A stretch of 64,000 nt of DNA from assembly GCA_965207145.1 (NCBI GenBank), contig OZ242262.1:1352827-1416826 (forward strand), read 5' to 3'. The first letter of the stretch is position 1, and every line of letters begins with the position of its first letter. A program made the position numbers and the translations under genes. The DNA is from Dehalococcoidia bacterium. GTDB taxonomy: Bacteria; Chloroflexota; Dehalococcoidia; Lucifugimonadales; UBA2962. The notes under the pieces were generated by a model. The model did not search any database, was not told the origin of the DNA, and saw nothing but the letters and a program-made list of their open reading frames with translations. Positions 9,811 through 64,000 of the stretch are shown piece by piece.

Positions 9811-10608
9811 TTGCTGCTCGTCGTTCTTATTGCAGGCTTATTCGCCGGCCTGGTGTCGGGTGTGGCGGGTATGGGGGTAGCCATAGCGGCCCTGCCGGTC
9901 CTGCTGTACGGTCCGGAGCTGTTCGGCATCGAGCCCCTGTCGGTGAAGGAGGTGACCGGCCTGACCGTCGTGCAGAGCTTTGCCAGCGGCGCCGTCAACA
10001 TCGTCCGCCACAGGTCCGCCGGTTACGTGCACCGACCTCTGGTGCTCTGGGTCGGGCTGCCTGCCGGTGCGCTCGCTTTGGGCGGGGCACTGGCATCCAC
10101 GTTTCTGCCAGACGCGGCGATCCTGGCGACGATGGTGGGCATGGCGTTGGCTGCCGCAGCGGTAATGCTATCTCCCAGCATTCTGAGGGGGCGGGCCAGC
10201 GGGCCTGGCGACGACGGATGGTCAGGCGAATCCGAGCCGCCCGATGTCGATAGGGTTAGAGCACTTACCGTGGGCGCCGTCGTGGGGGGAGTGGGCGGCA
10301 TCTCGGGCCTTCCGGGCGCGTTCTTGATGGTGCCGCTACTCATATTTGGACTGGGGATACCGACAAGGCTGGCGATCGGCAGCAATCTTGGAATCATGCT
10401 GTTCGCTTCGGGCGCCGCATTCATCGGCAAACTGGGTGGCACCCTGGTACCTGCGGTCCCGGCCCTTGTGATAGTCGGCAGCACAATGGTCGCGACACTG
10501 CTGGGGTTCGAGATCAACCGGCGACTGAGCGCCCGACATCTCAGGTGGCTGCTGGGCGCGCTGGTAGCGGCAACCGCGGTACGGGTGCTCTTGGACTTGC
10601 TCGGCTAG
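9811..10608 (+). CDS. TauE/SafE-family (sulfite exporter-like) membrane protein
   Basis: A polytopic Gly/Ala-rich membrane protein with 'GLVSGVAGMG' and a duplicated half, typical of TauE/SafE. TTG start as called; the exact start is uncertain. Confidence 0.7.
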   Translation: MLLVVLIAGLFAGLVSGVAGMGVAIAALPVLLYGPELFGIEPLSVKEVTGLTVVQSFASGAVNIVRHRSAGYVHRPLVLWVGLPAGALALGGALASTFLPDAAILATMVGMALAAAAVMLSPSILRGRASGPGDDGWSGESEPPDVDRVRALTVGAVVGGVGGISGLPGAFLMVPLLIFGLGIPTRLAIGSNLGIMLFASGAAFIGKLGGTLVPAVPALVIVGSTMVATLLGFEINRRLSARHLRWLLGALVAATAVRVLLDLLG

Positions 10609-10743
10609 GGGAGCGATACCCGCGCGGAGGGTAGGATCGGCCCTCCATGTTCGAGGGGCGTGAGAGCGCGGTAAGAGACCTCAGCTTGGCTCGAATGGCC
10701 CTGGAGGGACCCGGCCTGGCCGAAAAGCGGCTGTCTGGAAAAC

Positions 10744-11055
10744 TCAACGCAGCGGCATCCTGACGGCCCGCTCCAGGTTGGAAAGGTAGTCGCTGAAGGC
10801 GCGGCGCCCCTCTGGCGTTGCCTCCACCCAGGTGCGAGGCTTGGCCTTTAGGAATTCCTTGGTGGTGGCAACAAATCCCGCCTCCTCAAGCTTACGGAGA
10901 TGGATGGTGAGGTTGCCGCCGGTCAGGTCCAGAGTCTTCTGGATGAAACCGTAGGCCAGCCGGTCGGTCTCGGATTGGTGCGCCAGCATGGTCATGATGC
11001 GGAGCCGGGTGGATTGGTGGATCGTTTCGTCTAGGACGATCGGACCGTCTTTCAT
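10744..11055 (-). CDS. Winged-helix transcriptional regulator
   Basis: Only the last 103 codons of the 316-aa ORF look real: 'MKDGPIVLDETIHQSTRLRIMTMLA...LDLTGGNLTIHLRKLEEAGFVATTKE...W'. The ATG at 11055 overlaps the upstream gene's stop by 4 nt (ATGA). Confidence 0.7.
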   Translation of the reverse strand: MKDGPIVLDETIHQSTRLRIMTMLAHQSETDRLAYGFIQKTLDLTGGNLTIHLRKLEEAGFVATTKEFLKAKPRTWVEATPEGRRAFSDYLSNLERAVRMPLR

Positions 11056-11687
11056 GCGGTGCCGCTCCTGCGAATCCAGACCCAGGCTATGGCCACCACC
11101 ACCACCATCATCGCGGCAGATACAACCAGCGCGGCGTCGCCAGCAAAGTGGTCTGGAATATAGAAAGCCGCAGCTATGCCCAGCCCCACGAGGGCGATCG
11201 CCGGGTGGTGCATGATGCCGAAGAGGATGTACCCCAGCGACACGATCCCAATGGCGATACCGCCGATCGCCTTGCCGTCGGCCTCTGCGGTCCACAGCCC
11301 GGATGCAGCCGGGACTATGAAGGCGGCCGCCACAACCGAAATCCAGAACGCGAATACTCGCAGGCCCACGCTGGTGGCGGTGGGACCTGCGGCGTTGTCG
11401 CGGCTGGCCCGGTACCCGATCATGGAGCTTGCGACCATGCCCACAAGGCCCAGGCCGCCCCACAGGGGTCCCGGAAACCACGGGAAGTCCTCGGCAAAAC
11501 CGGTCGCGTGGGTGTCCACGGCAAACTGCGCAACGAAACCGATGGCGACGATGGCGCCCCACATCAGCATGATGGTCGGCCATCCGGCCACGTACATCGA
11601 ACTCCGGGACCTTTCCAGGGTCGCCTGTATCGACTCCCAACCCTCGTTGGGACTTATCCGTTCTCTTTTGACCTCTCCGCCCTGCAT
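11052..11687 (-). CDS. Hypothetical multi-pass membrane protein co-transcribed with the wHTH regulator
   Basis: 211 aa with about 6 hydrophobic helices. It shows 4-nt translational coupling to the regulator. No family recognised. Confidence 0.6.
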   Translation of the reverse strand: MQGGEVKRERISPNEGWESIQATLERSRSSMYVAGWPTIMLMWGAIVAIGFVAQFAVDTHATGFAEDFPWFPGPLWGGLGLVGMVASSMIGYRASRDNAAGPTATSVGLRVFAFWISVVAAAFIVPAASGLWTAEADGKAIGGIAIGIVSLGYILFGIMHHPAIALVGLGIAAAFYIPDHFAGDAALVVSAAMMVVVVAIAWVWIRRSGTA

Positions 11688-56771: not shown

Positions 56772-57089
56772 TCATCTGCCGCCCAACGGGGTCGCTTCTC
56801 GTCGCTGCACACGCTCTGCGATCCGCGGACCAGACTCGATTTCCGCCACGCGCAGCTCGAATGCTTTCTGAAGGTTCTGCCATAGTTGGGGCGTGGTGCC
56901 GAAGTACCGGGCAAGGCGAAGAGCCGTATCAGCCGTCACTCCCCTCTGTCCCTTCAGAATTGCCGTGATTCGATTCGTGGGTACATCAAGAGCCTTGGCG
57001 AGCGCGTTAGCCGACAACCCAAGCTCCTCGAGCTCCTCAGCCAATATCTCTCCGGGGTGGACCGGCCTCATTCCGTTGCTTGTACTCAT
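56772..57089 (-). CDS. higA: HigA-family antitoxin (XRE HTH)
   Basis: 'VHPGEILAEELEELGLSANALAKALDVPTNRITAILKGQRGVTADTALRLARYFGTTPQLW' is the canonical HigA pattern. The ATG at 57089 lies 10 nt after the higB stop. Confidence 0.85.
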   Translation of the reverse strand: MSTSNGMRPVHPGEILAEELEELGLSANALAKALDVPTNRITAILKGQRGVTADTALRLARYFGTTPQLWQNLQKAFELRVAEIESGPRIAERVQRREATPLGGR

Positions 57090-57099
57090 GTCCAACTCC

Positions 57100-57381
57100 T
57101 CATCGGTGGTAATCCACGACCTCCACGTCGTACGGTCCGTCATCTTCCCAGCGGAAGCATATTCGCCACTGGCGGTTGATCCGGATGCTGAACTGGCCCG
57201 TCCGGTTGCCGGAGAGAGCCTCCAGCCTGTTGCTGGGCAATCCGGCCAGATCTTGTAAGGAGGAAGCGTTGTCCAATACTGTGAGTCGACGCGTCGTCTG
57301 ATCAGCGAACCCATGGAAGGCCGGCACCAACTGGCCCTCAAAGAACCTCTCGGTTCTCCGATCTTTGAAGCCTCGGATCAT
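57100..57381 (-). CDS. higB: HigB-family toxin (RelE/ParE superfamily, plasmid maintenance killer)
   Basis: 'MIRGFKDRRTERFFEG...LPSNRLEALSGNRTGQFSIRINRQWRICFRWEDDGPYDVEVVDYH'. Confidence 0.85.
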   Translation of the reverse strand: MIRGFKDRRTERFFEGQLVPAFHGFADQTTRRLTVLDNASSLQDLAGLPSNRLEALSGNRTGQFSIRINRQWRICFRWEDDGPYDVEVVDYHR

Positions 57382-57477
57382 TGTAACGTCTTACGTAAAG
57401 AGTAAACAAGATTTTACCATGCGGGAGGAGGATCCGCGCGTGGGGGGCCTCGATCTGAAGTGCCCAGGCGTAAGCCC

Positions 57478-57963
57478 CTACCGTGGCCGATGACTGATCC
57501 TCAGTCTGTCGGTCGAATTCTCATTGACCACAGCTATAGGTGGTGACCATTTTGGATGATAGGCAGATGAGTGAGCGACCTGAGCCCACGCCAGAGCACC
57601 TACCGCGCCCGATGGTAGCGCCCAACAGACGAAGTGGAGGGCGTCGTGGCACCAGTGGATGGTGAAGTAAAGGTCCAGGGCACTCCCGACGGAGTCGAGA
57701 AGGAAGGGCAGGGTGATGAGAATACATATGGCCAAGGGGTATACCGCCCTTAGGCCAGAGAAGACCCAGACCGCAGGGACCGCCAGAGCGGCTACCGGAT
57801 ATGCGGCCAGTTGCTAGGGTAAGGTCTTGAGTTCGAACAGCTTCAGTCCGTAATAGGCTCCGAACGCCAGCAGAGCGACTGAGGCCGCCTTGAGGACAAG
57901 ACTGAACCAGGAGGCGATTACGCGGCGGGCAGAAGTGGTGGTCGATGGGAGTCCCAACGCCAT
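57478..57963 (-). pseudogene. Hypothetical 4-TM membrane protein gene interrupted by one in-frame TAG (57814-57816)
   Basis: Hand translation from ATG 57963 reads 'MALGLPSTTTSARRVIASWFSLVLKAASVALLAFGAYYGLKLFELKTLP*QLAAYPVAALAVPAVWVFSGLRAVYPLAICILITLPFLLDSVG...'. The frame stays hydrophobic and coherent on both sides of the stop. Confidence 0.45.
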
Positions 57964-58421
57964 CTTCCCAGGGTGCCGGATCGTCCGACGTAGCCGTTTA
58001 CTGGCAACGGTGCTGACGGCATGGTACAGGTGACCGACCGACCTCGAGCCCGCTTGGTAAAGGGATCAGGTGCTCTCCGGCTGTTCGGGCGCAAACTGAA
58101 CTATCAGGGAAACTCGGCGCCCCGTCCGCCATTCACGTGGTCTTGTCCCAGTCTTCGCGCCAACTGCAGTTAGTCATGAGGCGTACTGATCCACCCATTA
58201 GGGGTTTCGGTCCATGACGCCTCAATCGACTTGAGACATGGTGGGCAGCTGAGTGGAAACAACGCGCTGGGATGCGCAACTGTAGCTGACCTCGTTGTAC
58301 ATCTGCCTGTAGTGAGCCGCTAACACCTTCACCGACGGCATCGTGTAGAAGATCTCCCTATCCAATATCTCGTCCCTGAGCTTGCCGCTGCCTCTCCAAT
58401 GCCATCGACTATCCCGCTTCG

Positions 58422-59186
58422 ATGGCGCCTCATCTCATATGCAGGGATCAACTCGAGGCCAGCGCCTTGGCCCACGCCGCAGATCGGCTTGGGATGATTG
58501 TAGGTCGACTTGATGACCAAGGCGTAGAGGCACGGATCAAGACCACCGTTGGACGACCCGCAGAGGAGATTCTCCGTGTTGCCGACGAAGAGGGATGTGG
58601 CCTAATAGCGATGTCGACCCATTGCAAGAGCGCTCTGGGCCGGACGATCATGGGCAGTGTGACCGACAGGGTGATCCACGCCTCGTCCGTGCCTGTACTG
58701 GCGATTGCGCCGGAGAAGGCAAAGGCGTATCAAGGGCGAGGGGCGGTTCCTCTAAAGACGATCATGCTTCCGCTGGACGGTTCGCAACTCGCCGAACAGG
58801 CGGTTCCCTACGTTGAGGCGCTGGCCAGATCTCTTTCGCTTGAGATTCTCTTGGTGAGGGTCGTGGATCTTGAGGGCCCGGTCTTCGCATACCCATCAAA
58901 CGAACAGTTGGCCAGGTTCAGAGACGATCGCAACGGCGAGGCGGCGAAGTATCTGGAGGGTGTGTCCCGGGACCTGAAGGGCAGAGGGCTTAGGGTTCGG
59001 ACCACGGTGCTGCTAGGATCGCCGGCACAGACCCTCTTGGACCTTACCCACCGGACGCCGAACGACCTGATCGCAATGACGACGCACGGGAGGTCCGGGT
59101 TGTCAAGGTGGCTTGCAGGGAGCGTGGCGGAGGCGTTGATACGCGCCTCCGGCGATCCGGTGCTGGTGGTGCGATCACGCTCGTGA
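58422..59186 (+). CDS. Universal stress protein with tandem UspA domains (first domain N-terminally short)
   Basis: Domain 2 is complete: 'IMLPLDGSQLAEQAVPYVEALA...GSPAQTLLDL...DLIAMTTHGRSGLSRWLAGSVAEALIRASGDPVLVV'. Domain 1 retains only 'GRPAEEILRVADEEGCGLIAMSTH..LGRTIMGSVTDRVIHASSVPVLAI'. Confidence 0.75.
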   Translation: MAPHLICRDQLEASALAHAADRLGMIVGRLDDQGVEARIKTTVGRPAEEILRVADEEGCGLIAMSTHCKSALGRTIMGSVTDRVIHASSVPVLAIAPEKAKAYQGRGAVPLKTIMLPLDGSQLAEQAVPYVEALARSLSLEILLVRVVDLEGPVFAYPSNEQLARFRDDRNGEAAKYLEGVSRDLKGRGLRVRTTVLLGSPAQTLLDLTHRTPNDLIAMTTHGRSGLSRWLAGSVAEALIRASGDPVLVVRSRS

Positions 59187-59230
59187 CGAGTGTCCATCCC
59201 CCATTTTGAGGGTGCGTGTCAATTGGTTCT

Positions 59231-59279
59231 ATCTTCAGTCACCGAAAGCCGAAAATGTGGGCTGTCGGTGACTGAAGGT
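59231..59279. terminator. Strong hairpin (13-bp perfect stem, 19-nt loop) at the core/island junction; possible usp terminator
   Basis: 'cttcagtcaccga' (59233-59245) pairs perfectly with 'tcggtgactgaag' (59265-59277). It lies 47 nt after the usp stop, with a 'cttttc' stretch shortly after. Confidence 0.4.
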
Positions 59280-59664
59280 AGAACTTTTCAATACGTCGTA
59301 TCATTTTAGGCTTGAGCGCCGTGCATGTGGTGGTAAACGTATCCAGAGCGATTCGTTGGCGCGTTCGTGATGCTGAAATCCGCTCAGTCTGTCTCCAGAA
59401 TCGTGTATTCCTACAGCTTTTCTCGAACGTTCCCTGACCTAGGTGCTCGTCAGACTGAGCGCCCCATGTCGCCCTCGCGGCCGCCTCCGTCAAATTCCCT
59501 GAGGGCACGGAATCGGATAAGTGATGCCGAACGTTGCGATCGGGACGTCAACCCCTGAGCATCCGATTTGACAGTCGATGCGTGGGTCGCTGATCAATTC
59601 TGAATCAGGATCGACAGAGTCGTCCTTGAGGTTCAATGCCGTTGCGGGACGGCTTGGTCCTCAT

Positions 59665-61290
59665 CTACTGAACAGACTTGGTTGAGAATCTGTAGTTGCT
59701 GCGGCTACCCCGGAGTATTCGTGTGAACTGTTCATGAATGAGTGTCTCTGCGGTCCCTGGAGTGCCACTCAAGGCATCAGCGAGGGCCCTCCCCCAATCT
59801 TCCCCCTTGGTGAGCTGAACGCTACGGAGCACCCAATAAGCTTTGCGCAAGGCTGCAAATCCTACGTTCTCACCATGTAGCGAAGCATCTAAATCCGACA
59901 AATGGAGAGGCTCGATATCGGCGTTCAACGCATTGGTGGCCATTAGCATTGTTTCCAAACTGAAGTTTTGATCTTCAAAGTTCGGCTTGGAGATTGCGTA
60001 GCCTCCCGGCAACAGACCAGAATTCGACATATTCTCTAGCACCCGGTGACGTTCAACATACTGATCGTCAGCGTCAACTGTCATTGCAACGAAGACCTCC
60101 TCCTCTTGGCTCAGGATTAGTAAATCCCGTACCAGCGGATCTTCCAGTTTGCCGACGCCTTTCAGATCAAGCAGTTCGATCCCTGCGCGCTCCAGGCTCA
60201 CATGCCGGCGTTCCGCCCATCGCTCGATGAATCCCATCTCTGTTGCCCCCTCGACCAACCATCGGACACGAGGCTGCGGGTCGAGATCGTATTGTCGGAC
60301 GACATTCCTAAAAACCGATCGGTTGCCGTCGGTTGTGGTTTGGCTTCCAAAAAACCGTTCCTTATAGTCGGGAACCTGCAAATCTAGGCGGACGAGGTCC
60401 TCGTCTGGCAGATCAGTCACGCCATGATGTTTCGCGAGGTAGCGGCGCAGCACCTCCGCCTGATAGTAGCCGTCCTCAGCGCGAAGCGCCGCACCCTTGA
60501 GCGTGAGGCGCTTTTCGCGAGGCACATAGGCGATCAGTTCGCGCCAATTGCTTAGAGGATCGCTAAGTTCCGCATCGATGGCGAGCTTGTTGTGCCAGCG
60601 CCGCATCATATCCACGCTGCTGTGATTTGCCGTTAGAACGTCATCGTGGTCGATTTCTTGGCGCCAAGCGATCAAACCCTCGATGGTTTCATTTTGAAAC
60701 GGGTCCGTCTTGATTCGACCAATTAGGGTCTCAATTACCAGCGGCTCTGCGGCTAGGAGCATCCCGACAATGGAGAGTGATTCGGACCATGGCTCGCTAG
60801 CTGCCAAATTCCCCAATTTCTCCCGCAGGTCGAGACGCTGCAGTCGCTCAATTCGTTTCTGGTAGGCGTCTGGATCGTATAGGCCTTGGTAGAAGGCTAC
60901 GTTGAGGTCCAAATAGGTTGCTATCCGACTCGCCCGCCAAAGTTGAAACGGATGCCACCAAGATCGGCCTAATTCGAAATTGGTCGGAGCCTGATCACAT
61001 AACTGTTTGAATTCAGGGGTCTGCCCTCGATCCCCGTACACACATCCGAGCCCGTCGATCTCAACAGGAACAAATCGATCCTTACTCGCCGAGTCGGGAG
61101 GAACTTCCCAGGCGATAGGCGGGAAAACACCTTCGCTGGCTAAGAAGAGGAGCGCTTGAGAGCTGATGTTGACGTTCCGCGCCTCCAACCAGCGAACGAA
61201 TTGTCGCGCCTCCATGGGCGGCGTCTGTCGGTATGGAGCTCCAAGAGCATTGTCGACGATGGAGGCAACGAGAGAGTCGGGTATATCCAC
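59665..61290 (-). CDS. Orphan 541-aa protein: unrecognised helical N-terminal region plus a Toprim-like C-terminal module
   Basis: Long uninterrupted ORF in low-GC DNA with ordinary, non-Arg-biased composition. 'RVRWLVEGATEMGFIERW' and 'VFVAMTVDADDQ' about 55 aa later resemble the Glu...DxD layout of Toprim domains (OLD/DUF4276/RloB-like). No ATPase motif was seen. Confidence 0.6.
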   Translation of the reverse strand: MDIPDSLVASIVDNALGAPYRQTPPMEARQFVRWLEARNVNISSQALLFLASEGVFPPIAWEVPPDSASKDRFVPVEIDGLGCVYGDRGQTPEFKQLCDQAPTNFELGRSWWHPFQLWRASRIATYLDLNVAFYQGLYDPDAYQKRIERLQRLDLREKLGNLAASEPWSESLSIVGMLLAAEPLVIETLIGRIKTDPFQNETIEGLIAWRQEIDHDDVLTANHSSVDMMRRWHNKLAIDAELSDPLSNWRELIAYVPREKRLTLKGAALRAEDGYYQAEVLRRYLAKHHGVTDLPDEDLVRLDLQVPDYKERFFGSQTTTDGNRSVFRNVVRQYDLDPQPRVRWLVEGATEMGFIERWAERRHVSLERAGIELLDLKGVGKLEDPLVRDLLILSQEEEVFVAMTVDADDQYVERHRVLENMSNSGLLPGGYAISKPNFEDQNFSLETMLMATNALNADIEPLHLSDLDASLHGENVGFAALRKAYWVLRSVQLTKGEDWGRALADALSGTPGTAETLIHEQFTRILRGSRSNYRFSTKSVQ

Positions 61291-61504
61291 GGCGAACGAA
61301 TTCCAGGCAACGGCGGTCTCGAGCTGTTAGATGAGCAAAGTGCCGCTTACATGGTAAGACAGTTGTCGGACACCCTAGTGATTCGCAACCCTAATTCTGA
61401 CCTCGCTGGCTTCGCCGAGGAAATGACTTGGGCAGTTGACCCAAGCGTCTATATCTCATTTTCTGGGCAGGTGATATGACAAGCTAGGCGTTTGGAGACT
61501 CCGA

Positions 61505-62100
61505 TCTCGCGTCTCGCAGGCTTGACCCTGCCCTTCCCACTCTGACCGATACGTGTTGCCTTGGCCGCTTCGGTCCTAGCCACAGCCCCTCCATGCGGTA
61601 GAGCCTGTAGACTCTCTCGCGATTCACCTTCCATCCTCAGCAGCATGTGGATACGCAGGCGTTCATAGCTCACCCGCGATTCCGCAAGGTCCTTGATCCC
61701 CAACCTCAGAGCAGTCTGTTCAGAGGCCGCGCCCTCGTACCTGCAGGTCGAGCGCGCTAGCGTCAGCGCCCGGTACCCGTGGGCATTGGCTAGGGTTGAA
61801 TTCTGATTTTCCTCCGATACGACCCCCGGCGCCTGTGTACGTCCAGTTCGAGTTCTTCGACGCCCTTGCCTGATGACGAAAGCGATGTCCAGCGGCCTGT
61901 CCGCTAGCTCAGCGGCCATCGCCGGCGTTCTCAGGCTCCCGTGCGGCCGGCAGAAGCTGTAGTGCGTCAAGAACAGGGCGGTGGAGTACCAGTGGTAATG
62001 CACACTCCTGGAGAAGGCACTGGTCAGCCGCGTATACCGCCTAACGCGCATCCCCAGACTTTGAGGCTCCTGTATCAGACGACACGTCCCGCAGCTTCGA
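61505..62100 (-). mobile_element. Nested insertion-sequence debris: IS1-family transposase C-terminal fragment followed by an IS3-family OrfB N-terminal fragment
   Basis: One 240-aa ORF is chimeric. 'RRYTRLTSAFSRSVHYHWYSTALFLTHYSFCRPHGSLR.TPAMAAELADRP' resembles the IS1 InsB tail. 'YRALTLARSTCRYEG....ALRLGIKDLAESRVSYERLRIHMLLRMEG' resembles an IS3 OrfB head. No intact DDE domain is present. Confidence 0.5.
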
Positions 62101-62887
62101 TCTCTCTCTGCGCAAGGCGCCCGAGGAACGTGCCGAGATCTTGGCCTGCACCGTCGCCGGCCAGATCGCACACGGCTGCACAGTCGAGTCGCTGAGCTAT
62201 CTCATTGCGGTGCCGAACCGACGTCGCCGAGGCAATCACATCCGGTATCTCATCCTGACAGCCCTGATCTTAAGGGTCCGGGGTCTCAACTAGCTTGGCC
62301 TGTTCGCCTTCGGGGACGAGACAAGTGAGATGTTGACCGTGGACGGCCGGCGCAACTCCTCGACTGCAGGTCTGAGACACAGCCATCAGCCTGCTATCAT
62401 GATCCCCTGAGACCGAGGTTTCGATTCCGACCTCTCCGCATGTGGAACTGGGACCAGTATCCTCGGTTATCTGGGCACACGTGGTTCGTGAGCGCCGAAA
62501 GTCTCTAATGCGGAGGATTTGGGTGACAAGCCTGCTGATGGCGGCAAGCACAGTTCTCGGGATTGTCACACGGGCTAGCGGCAACAATTTCAGCCCACTC
62601 CTCCACGGACTTCGGAGTGCCCCTAAGCTAGGGATCGGGGGCACAGTTCGTCTCTTCATGGCTTTACCAGCAGGATCCGCCAGGTAGATTGGAGAGCTGT
62701 CGAATGGCTGCGGACCCGTGCGAACCTATGAGCACGTTCAGACAGATGCTGCGGCGTCATATGACCGGTCTGCACTCTTGCGTCGAGTTGAAGAGTCGTT
62801 GTTGAGAAAGAGTGCTCGCTCCCCATTGAGCACTACCAAGAAGGACAACTGCGAAGAAAATCGTCCAACCCTCATAAGGCGAAAGAA

Positions 62888-64000
62888 ATGAACGTACAGA
62901 TGGGCCCTGAGGGTCAAGTCGCCAAGGTGACTGCCGTCAGCAACGACGGAGCCAGAGTCTATATAGAGTACAAGAATGGAATCACTGGCTGGTTCGACCA
63001 GCCCACGCCCGAGTTCAAGCGCGGTGATGTCCTCCTGATAGCTACCAGTGAAATGGGTCCAACCCCATACGTGATACCAAGTGATGTTTGGCCAGATAAC
63101 GTTTGGGTTGGGGTAGTCAAGATAAAACTCGAAGACATCACGGTCATAGAAGCCAACGGTAGATTTCGCACAGTGCCGACAAGTGACCGCGTAGACTATA
63201 GACCCGACTATACCGTTCAAGCTAACGACCTTGATGGAGTAGTGCGAGTTCTATCTGAGAAAGGCATCAAATACATCGACCTTCATTCTGAGATTGATGA
63301 CCAAACCATAGACCGCTTTCTGTGGACTGCTCCAGAAGGGGAACTCTTGGACTTCGATGATTTCGGAGGATTAAGACCAGTCGTAGATAGAGCCAAGGAG
63401 CTAATTGAATTGACACTCTTGCGCGGTAATGAATTGTCCGCAATCGGGGTGCCTCCCATTAAGGGCGTTCTCTTCACTGGCGAGCCAGGTACCGGCAAAA
63501 CTATGCTGGCGCGAATCATCGCATCACAGTCGGACGCAGCTTTCTTCGAGATTTCAGGACCGGAAATCTTTAGTAAATGGTATGGTCAAAGCGAAGAATT
63601 GCTCAGGAGGATCTTCGAACGAGCTGCGCAGGAGGAGAAGGCTATAATATTCTTCGACGAGATCGACAGTGTTGCCAGCCAAAGGGATGATCAGTCTCAT
63701 GAAGCCTCAAGGCGGGTAGTCGCACAGCTCCTTACACTGATGGATGGATTCACTAGAGACGAAAACGTTGTAGTCATAGCTGCCACTAACAGGCATGAGG
63801 ACCTAGATCACGCGCTCCGACGCCCGGGGCGCTTTGATTGGGAGATTGAATTCCCTTTCCCGAACGAACTAGACCGACTAGACATACTTAAGAAGACGGC
63901 ACGTGGGAAGCGAATAACAGGCGTCCTGCCTTACGAAGCAGTTGCGAAAGTTTCCGAAGGATGGTCAGGTGCCGACCTCACCGCCATCTGGAAAGAAGCT
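62888..64000 (+). CDS. Classic-clade AAA+ ATPase (CDC48/FtsH-like module) with an unrecognised N-terminal domain of about 150 aa; 3' end outside the window
   Basis: Not in the supplied ORF track because it has no stop in the window. Hand translation from ATG 62888 stays open for 371 codons to position 64000. Walker A 'GEPGTGKT', Walker B 'IIFFDEID' and second region of homology 'ATNRHEDLDHALRRPGRFD' are present. Confidence 0.85.
   Translation, partial: MNVQMGPEGQVAKVTAVSNDGARVYIEYKNGITGWFDQPTPEFKRGDVLLIATSEMGPTPYVIPSDVWPDNVWVGVVKIKLEDITVIEANGRFRTVPTSDRVDYRPDYTVQANDLDGVVRVLSEKGIKYIDLHSEIDDQTIDRFLWTAPEGELLDFDDFGGLRPVVDRAKELIELTLLRGNELSAIGVPPIKGVLFTGEPGTGKTMLARIIASQSDAAFFEISGPEIFSKWYGQSEELLRRIFERAAQEEKAIIFFDEIDSVASQRDDQSHEASRRVVAQLLTLMDGFTRDENVVVIAATNRHEDLDHALRRPGRFDWEIEFPFPNELDRLDILKKTARGKRITGVLPYEAVAKVSEGWSGADLTAIWKEA

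Follow-up and report, generated by a model that had tools for sequence, protein, structure and literature searches.

A probable OLD-type Toprim nuclease without an ATPase in a Dehalococcoidia genome: a candidate single-gene defence family with a conserved N-terminal module

In the OLD-type Toprim nucleases that have been studied (P2 Old, Gabija, PARIS, the retron-associated OLDs, Menshen and MADS), it is an ABC ATPase or a reverse transcriptase that controls the firing of the nuclease. What, then, becomes of such a nuclease when its gene encodes no ATPase? The question is raised by a gene on the minus strand of a 64,000-nucleotide stretch of Dehalococcoidia bacterium DNA (contig OZ242262.1 of assembly GCA_965207145.1, positions 1,352,827 to 1,416,826), which we refer to as the window. 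A sequence-only reading had described the product as an orphan protein of 541 residues, in which a Toprim-like module with a Glu...DxD layout follows a helical-looking, tryptophan-rich and novel N-terminal region, and which has no ATPase domain.

Here we analyze this protein together with its homologs and their genomic contexts. We find that it is very probably an intact OLD-type Toprim nuclease that lacks an ATPase. The reading toward which we lean, with moderate confidence, is that it is a single-polypeptide, ATPase-less relative of OLD and Gabija, serving as a stand-alone defence gene that is gated by its N-terminal module. The effector is familiar; the interest of the family lies in its N-terminal domain, in how large it is and in its one-gene architecture. 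No description of the family was found in the searchable literature or in the available domain and defence libraries.

Translation of the minus strand bears out the 541-codon open reading frame (ORF), its positions and the motifs first read from it. Residues 341-445 correspond exactly to nucleotides 59956-60270, and the motifs are R341-VRWLVEGATE-351, 'TVDADD' with D406-A-D408-D409, and 'NFEDQNF' at residues 437-443. The layout of the acidic residues stands, with a spacing of 59 residues between the first glutamate and the DxD motif in place of the 'about 55' given earlier, and the description as tryptophan-rich agrees with a count of 13 tryptophans in the whole protein (2.4% of residues). The start codon, a GTG at 61290, is backed by an N-terminal 'MxIPD' that is kept in homologs. 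A public protein of identical sequence (P0001, 516 residues) is annotated from M26 and so is 25 codons short (61213-61290); conservation of the first 25 residues in homologs indicates that the GTG at 61290 is the likely true start.

The C-terminal catalytic region and its active site

The sequence-only reading had staked its Toprim assignment beforehand on structure and profile searches, and Pfam, Foldseek, BFVD and hhalign all return Toprim similarity. The sole Pfam match of the window protein is to OLD-like_TOPRIM (PF20469), over residues 345-383 (E 3.5e-4, 21.5 bits). Among the 65 diverse family members on which all domain-library scans were run, the same Pfam family matches 31 at E<=0.01 (best 3.8e-6); its curated gathering cut-off is passed by relatives such as P0085 (31.5 bits), and P0020 and P0024 carry precomputed PF20469 matches. 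A profile search against PDB sequences gave only marginal matches to OLD proteins (E 0.39-0.81), over the VEGxxE segment.

A full-length AlphaFold2 model, built on 18 sequences, has a mean predicted local distance difference test score (pLDDT) of 79.4. Its secondary structure, assigned by DSSP, places Toprim strands at residues 342-346, 371-375, 400-406 and 430-434 in alternation with helices, followed by a helical bundle. In this four-stranded alpha/beta core, E347 is located just after strand 342-346 and D406-x-D408 at the end of strand 400-406. The top five Foldseek matches in PDB are all C-terminal regions of Class 2 OLD proteins, from Xanthomonas and Burkholderia (6njv, 6njx, 6njw, 6nk8), with probabilities of 0.97-1.00 and target TM-scores of 0.46-0.55. 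These alignments extend over ~223 columns against targets of 198-208 residues, enough to cover the Toprim domain and the OLD helical domain alike. In BFVD, the meaningful Foldseek matches were an RloB-like protein and DnaG Toprim domains.

To place individual residues, we aligned a profile of the family's C-terminal region by hhalign with three plasmid-borne Class 2 OLD/GajA proteins, each encoded by a gene that is followed by a helicase gene, and one of which shares the numbering of Burkholderia OLD. The alignment has a probability of 94.3% (E 9.5e-8, 158 columns) and pairs residues 341-511 with GajA 395-578 at an identity of ~22% over the aligned region, while cross-domain controls gave E-values of 0.28-0.58. 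The likeness to Toprim thus exceeds what chance would give. The C-terminal ~200 residues of the protein are an OLD-type catalytic region, consisting of a Toprim and a helical domain.

In Burkholderia OLD, a seven-residue two-metal site and catalytic lysine were shown experimentally (Schiltz et al. 2019, PMC6755086), in which the Toprim glutamate E400 serves metal A and the glutamate at +4, E404, the water shell of metal B. Each of the seven positions has a counterpart here, and their conservation was counted over 213 full-length homologs with overall identity as low as ~20%. Within the Toprim domain, E347 matches E400 and is kept in 212 of the 213, E351 matches E404 (213/213), D406 matches D455 (213/213), and D408 matches D457, with an acidic residue in 196 (D in 184, E in 12); the conservation of acidic residues that the first reading had anticipated is thus found. 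Of the positions in the helical domain, N437 corresponds to T506 (D or N in 199/213), E439 to E508 (206/213) and K495, in 'KGxxWG', to K562 in 'GKGRFA' (190/213). Also conserved in the C-terminal region are G348 (213/213), W499 (188/213) and G500 (196/213).

Taken as a set, the seven catalytic positions are conserved at 89-100%, and such conservation at low overall identity indicates strong purifying selection, acting on catalysis. By alignment, E347, D406 and D408 are predicted to hold metal A, and E351, N/D437 and E439 metal B, with K495 as the lysine of the helical domain. Because the full two-metal active site is present, the protein is predicted to cut phosphodiester bonds in nucleic acid. 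Class 2 OLD/GajA proteins cut DNA by two-metal catalysis (PMC6755086) and both P2 Old and AriB cleave tRNAs (PMC12445682, PMC11464382); the substrate of the present protein may be either.

The N-terminal module and the extent of the family

If the catalytic half is that of OLD, the half in front of it is not. Across the 65 members, Pfam, NCBIfam, PADLOC and PHROG contain nothing that matches residues 1-335, and no ATPase family of Pfam or NCBIfam is hit. A Walker A pattern (G....GK[ST] or [AG]....GK) occurs nowhere in the window protein, and hhalign gives a probability of 0.1% (E 0.58) for the family's N-terminal profile against the ATPase region of GajA. Finding neither a Walker pattern nor hhalign similarity to the GajA ATPase, we rejected the idea that the N-terminal half hides an ATPase. 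It follows that the protein is not an OLD family member as defined: the defining ABC ATPase was looked for and is missing.

In its place stands a real conserved domain. Modeled alone with AlphaFold2, residues 1-340 form a compact and mostly helical structure with a pLDDT of 85.8 and a predicted template modeling score (pTM) of 0.87, and Foldseek finds no fold match to this model in PDB (best E 1.9, prob 0.03). The missing ATPase and the helical character that the sequence-only reading had proposed are thereby upheld, and so, within the libraries tested, is the novelty of the region. The signature of the module is a '(W/F)HP(F/Y)(Q/R)' motif, in which H113 is kept in 212 of the 213 homologs, P114 in 205 and F/Y115 in 201. 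Near-invariant residues of the module comprise Q22, G54, D87, H113, D244, E279, R282 and E297, and the pattern of polar residues among them suggests that the module has a binding pocket or a second active site and is more than a scaffold.

One part of the module bears on whether the protein is an enzyme at all. The secondary structure of residues 26-87 in the AlphaFold2 models (Table 1) is reminiscent in its topology of a winged helix-turn-helix (HTH), and the OLD helical domain resembles the controller proteins of restriction-modification systems (PMC6755086). One could accordingly picture a non-catalytic DNA-binding or regulatory protein that has retained a Toprim scaffold, as RecR has, behind an HTH-like N-terminus. 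No HTH family is detectable by sequence in residues 26-87, even at E<=10, and the winged-HTH assignment was left as a topological remark. A protein relieved of catalysis would also sit poorly with seven catalytic positions conserved at the level given above in sequences of which some are only ~20% identical overall. We regard this explanation as very improbable, and keep to that of a nuclease.

How widespread is the architecture? A first homology search found 25 homologs. Searching 1.84 billion cluster representatives with a profile raised this to 1,225 at E<=1e-3, of which 352 at E<=1e-30, the unit of family size here being clusters at 50% identity; nearly all of the matches are full-length proteins of ~540-600 residues that align from end to end. 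The family splits into two large subfamilies, the second of which was reached by a search seeded with a distant member (P0108), and repeating the homology search with a 65-sequence profile added almost nothing. Members of the second subfamily, from Herpetosiphon, Caldithrix, Smithella, Desulfobacteraceae, Thiodiazotropha, Binatia and Acidobacteria, are all recorded as 'hypothetical protein' with no Pfam domain. The taxonomic spread of the whole family is patchy (Chloroflexota, Verrucomicrobia, Caldithrix, Desulfobacterota, Gamma- and Betaproteobacteria, Acidobacteria and Binatia). The label 'orphan' does not survive this search: with 1,225 homologous clusters across many phyla, the protein is unannotated, not orphan.

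Defence libraries recognize only its effector part. In PADLOC-DB v2 (2023), the window protein has no match at E<=0.01 and a weak GajA match on residues 345-413, and other members meet only the GajA or mad4 models, weakly and on the Toprim part (best 2.7e-5). A phage collection and PHROGs held no meaningful match to the family.

Genomic contexts and competing explanations

We inspected 15 independent contexts of family members, the window included, about 11 of which are defence or mobile-element islands. The window counts as one of these by virtue of insertion sequence (IS) remnants, a HigBA pair and a drop in GC content. In other islands, the homolog is found with TIR/cNMP, REase-ARP, AbiEii and HNH genes (L001); with GmrSD directly upstream (L004/L005); with a Bil-like E2/ThiF/JAB operon and a 1,746-residue nSTAND NTPase (L006); with DndB, a methylase and an rve fragment in a Dehalococcoidia metagenome-assembled genome (L007); with a Schlafen-nSTAND protein (L008); with a giant SIR2_2 protein (L009); with an integrase, a diversity-generating retroelement and IS3 on an Ideonella megaplasmid (L011); with MmeI, DUF1016, ImmA and T5orf172 (L015); or with DUF4238 and a 2,177-residue NACHT protein (L019). 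At L010, read by inspection without a profile search, a degraded copy lies beside a putative serine recombinase and an MmeI-like methylase.

Some of the copies have decayed or been disrupted. At L010 the copy is reduced to fragments (10022-11223), at L007 a frameshift, perhaps an error of assembly, divides it in two (10001-11634), and on the Ideonella megaplasmid (L011, 8410-9939) an IS3 transposase overlaps the gene at its 3' end.

These surroundings have to be set against a different kind of neighborhood, in which the homolog stands among core genes: ribosomal protein genes and a radical-SAM gene adjoin it at L013/14, it lies beside Fur/Znu at L002, and in Herpetosiphon llansteffanensis and H. 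geysericola (L012/L020) its place between ComEC and a BcsB-like gene is syntenic. Settings such as these, together with the fact that no toxin-antitoxin-like partner or immunity gene is evident, would fit a housekeeping nuclease for nucleic-acid processing or repair, of the kind for which RNase M5 and RecR use Toprim, with the defence neighbors coincidental. Enzymes of that sort are, however, usually near-universal in a lineage, whereas this family is patchy across phyla; its copies are often flanked by IS elements, integrases and defence genes, and decayed copies exist; and its closest relatives in sequence and fold are the OLD/Gabija immune nucleases rather than RNase M5, RecR or DnaG. A housekeeping role is in our judgment unlikely, while deserving to be taken seriously.

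The other question that the contexts can answer is whether the gene has a partner. ATPase-less OLD-like Toprim proteins that have been characterized (AriB/DUF4435, DUF4276/Mad4, RloB and NsnC variants) need a separate ABC ATPase (PMC11464382, PMC12065111), and by this precedent our protein could be one half of a two-part system resembling PARIS, Menshen or MADS, contributing the effector while an ABC ATPase or other sensor encoded elsewhere in the genome controls it in trans. Large STAND NTPases do adjoin the gene at L006 and L019 and lie close by at L008. Yet no neighboring gene of any kind is conserved across the 15 contexts, and none of the 15 has an adjacent ABC ATPase. An adjacent UvrD-like GajB helicase is likewise missing from the window and the 14 other contexts, unlike the plasmid Class 2 OLD references (L016-L018), where GajA-GajB pairs are present. 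The AAA+ gene of the window, from 62888 onward, is 1.6 kb from the Toprim gene, in divergent orientation and with IS remnants between; as no such gene is near any homolog at the other loci, it was rejected as a partner.

The effectors of known split systems also differ in kind. AriB, DUF4276/Mad4, RloB and Menshen NsnC resemble our protein in being Toprim polypeptides without an ATPase, in having defence-related contexts and in that dimerization is likely required for activity (PMC11464382, PMC12065111). They are, on the other hand, ~200-300 residues long, have an adjacent ABC ATPase and belong to Pfam families of their own, while ours has 541 residues, a further conserved module of 335 residues and no conserved partner. 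DUF4435 matches none of the 65 members, and DUF4276 one, weakly. The protein is not a short effector of the AriB, DUF4276 or RloB type, and a split system is quite improbable.

We thus return to the reading of a stand-alone defence gene gated by its N-terminal module, against which a number of points must be weighed. Roughly four contexts (L002, L003, L013/14, L012/L020) are housekeeping-like, and the sample of 15 is small and not a controlled enrichment test. Searching the phage collection, in which OLD-type systems are numerous, turned up no member. The window protein's own PF20469 score of 21.5 bits is under the curated gathering cut-off of 23.2 bits, and its full-length model has a pTM of 0.63, so that inter-domain confidence is only moderate and the modeled contact between the two halves tentative. 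The proposed superposition of active sites comes from profile alignment, not from three-dimensional comparison. Nuclease activity, a regulatory role of the N-terminus and a defence function are inferences.

Several observations on individual loci are recorded here in their own right. The GmrSD-type (DUF262+DUF1524) genes of L004 (6054-7877) and L005 (6066-7877) lie on the homolog's strand and end 124 nt upstream of it; as L004 and L005 are two contigs of one sample, GmrSD plus homolog is a possible local two-gene arrangement, seen nowhere else. The giant STAND NTPases are an nSTAND5 protein of 1,746 residues directly downstream of the homolog at L006 (7912-13152), the NACHT protein of 2,177 residues directly upstream at L019 (1378-7911) and a Schlafen+nSTAND5 protein of 1,214 residues ~3 kb away at L008 (4507-8151). 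Their presence at three unrelated loci may reflect defence islands only, or a recurrent association. At L006 and L009, two small ORFs upstream of the homolog raised the possibility of a three-gene operon, which we rejected because the small proteins are mutually unrelated. In one of the two Herpetosiphon loci (L012/L020), a 686-residue gene of no assigned family is inserted upstream of the homolog.

In the window itself (Table 1), degenerate IS remnants lie directly upstream of the gene, and downstream of it come a tandem Usp gene and then the HigB/HigA pair. GC content falls over 59000-64000 from ~0.62, the value in most of the window, to 0.55 and then to 0.50 at the end, which is consistent with a horizontally acquired segment comprising the Toprim gene, the IS remnants and the AAA+ gene. 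No tRNA, Rfam element or structured RNA was found near the gene, and promoter and terminator scans around it were uninformative. The ~1 kb between HigBA and the Usp gene (57400-58420) contains neither an ORF of at least 90 codons, in either orientation, nor a tRNA or Rfam match. At the other end of the window, the N-terminal domain of the AAA+ gene product, ~190 residues with no function assigned, is encoded in the part of the window with the lowest GC (0.50), and an ORF on the minus strand (62738-63220) is probably an antisense shadow of this gene.

Table 1. Features of the Toprim gene and its neighborhood, in window coordinates
Feature	Position	Strand	Basis and remarks
Complete gene	59665..61290	minus	541 codons plus stop, GTG start at 61290; ORF list, translation check
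Toprim domain, residues 341-436	59983..60270	minus	Pfam PF20469, Foldseek, DSSP, hhalign
E347-G-A-T-E351	60238..60252	minus	Equivalent to Burkholderia OLD E400, E404; HMMER alignment to 6nk8, hhalign
D406-A-D408, DxD motif	60067..60075	minus	Equivalent to Burkholderia OLD D455, D457; hhalign
OLD-type helical domain, residues 437-541	59668..59982	minus	N437/E439, K495 in 'KGxxWG'; hhalign, Foldseek, conservation
N-terminal module, residues 1-335	60286..61290	minus	Largely alpha-helical, unmatched by known families; probably serves regulation, sensing or oligomerization
Strand-helix-turn-helix-strand, then beta-hairpin, residues 26-87	61030..61215	minus	DSSP of AlphaFold2 models
'WHPFQ' motif, residues 112-116	60943..60957	minus	Signature of N-terminal module; conservation
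Degenerate IS remnants	61449..62171	minus	IS1-like: tblastn, residues 35-100, 45-49% identity
IS3-OrfB-like stretch (IS3 OrfB N-terminus)	61484-61627	minus	Putative, from ORF translation
Tandem Usp gene	58422-59186		
HigB-like toxin	57100-57381	minus	Pair spans 56772-57381, ~2.3 kb downstream of the gene
HigA-type HTH antitoxin, in ORF	56772-57341	minus	
AAA+ ATPase gene	62888-64000, runs off window end	plus	Walker A 'GEPGTGKT', Walker B 'IIFFDEID', 'RPGRFD'

Relation to known systems and proposed mechanism

Where does the family stand among characterized systems? With Class 2 OLD and Gabija GajA (6NK8, 6NJV) it shares the whole C-terminal region, the seven active-site residues and the VEGxxE motif; it differs in that their N-terminal ABC ATPase is replaced by ~335 unrelated alpha-helical residues and in that no GajB is adjacent. 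P2 Old and other Class 1 OLD proteins (Ts OLD, 6P74) are likewise single-gene Toprim effectors, to which the Foldseek match is weaker (prob 0.66), and they too possess the ABC ATPase that is absent here; in Class 1 OLD, ATP hydrolysis activates tRNA cleavage (PMC12445682). In Class 2 OLD/GajA, P2 Old and AriB, an ABC ATPase, fused or separately encoded, perceives the trigger and gates the nuclease (PMC6755086, PMC12445682, PMC11464382).

The nearest architectural precedent is the retron fusion of reverse transcriptase and Toprim, of the Retron-Eco2/Ec67 type (PMC12405507), in which an OLD-like Toprim effector is joined, within one polypeptide, to a sensing or regulatory module other than an ATPase. 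The N-terminal partner in that case is a reverse transcriptase, with its noncoding RNA and multicopy single-stranded DNA, whereas neither a reverse transcriptase domain nor a structured RNA was found here.

How might a nuclease of this architecture be kept in check? We envisage that the N-terminal module holds the nuclease off until it binds a cue, which would switch the enzyme on. The same module would probably mediate the dimerization that Toprim nucleases need, as AriB must dimerize to act (PMC11464382). Binding of the cue would free the Toprim site for cleavage of DNA or tRNA, with the result that the invader is destroyed or the infection aborted, and the protein could in this way act as a stand-alone anti-phage or anti-mobile-element defence gene. 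More tentatively, and with rather less confidence than in the defence reading as a whole, we propose a new class of OLD-like immune nuclease, in which the novel alpha-helical fold would recognize a phage or mobile-element cue through an invariant pocket of H113, D87, D244, E279, R282 and E297 and thereby license the two-metal Toprim nuclease. If true, single genes of this kind would provide a widespread defence that dispenses with nucleotide hydrolysis.

The family keeps the entire OLD catalytic region while the ATPase is swapped for a conserved domain, so that the effector can evidently be wired to another switch. For annotation, hundreds of entries now called 'hypothetical protein' could be named on this basis. 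For the study of defence, the family offers a compact single-gene candidate system and, by comparison with the classical ones, a natural way to gauge the contribution of the ATPase.

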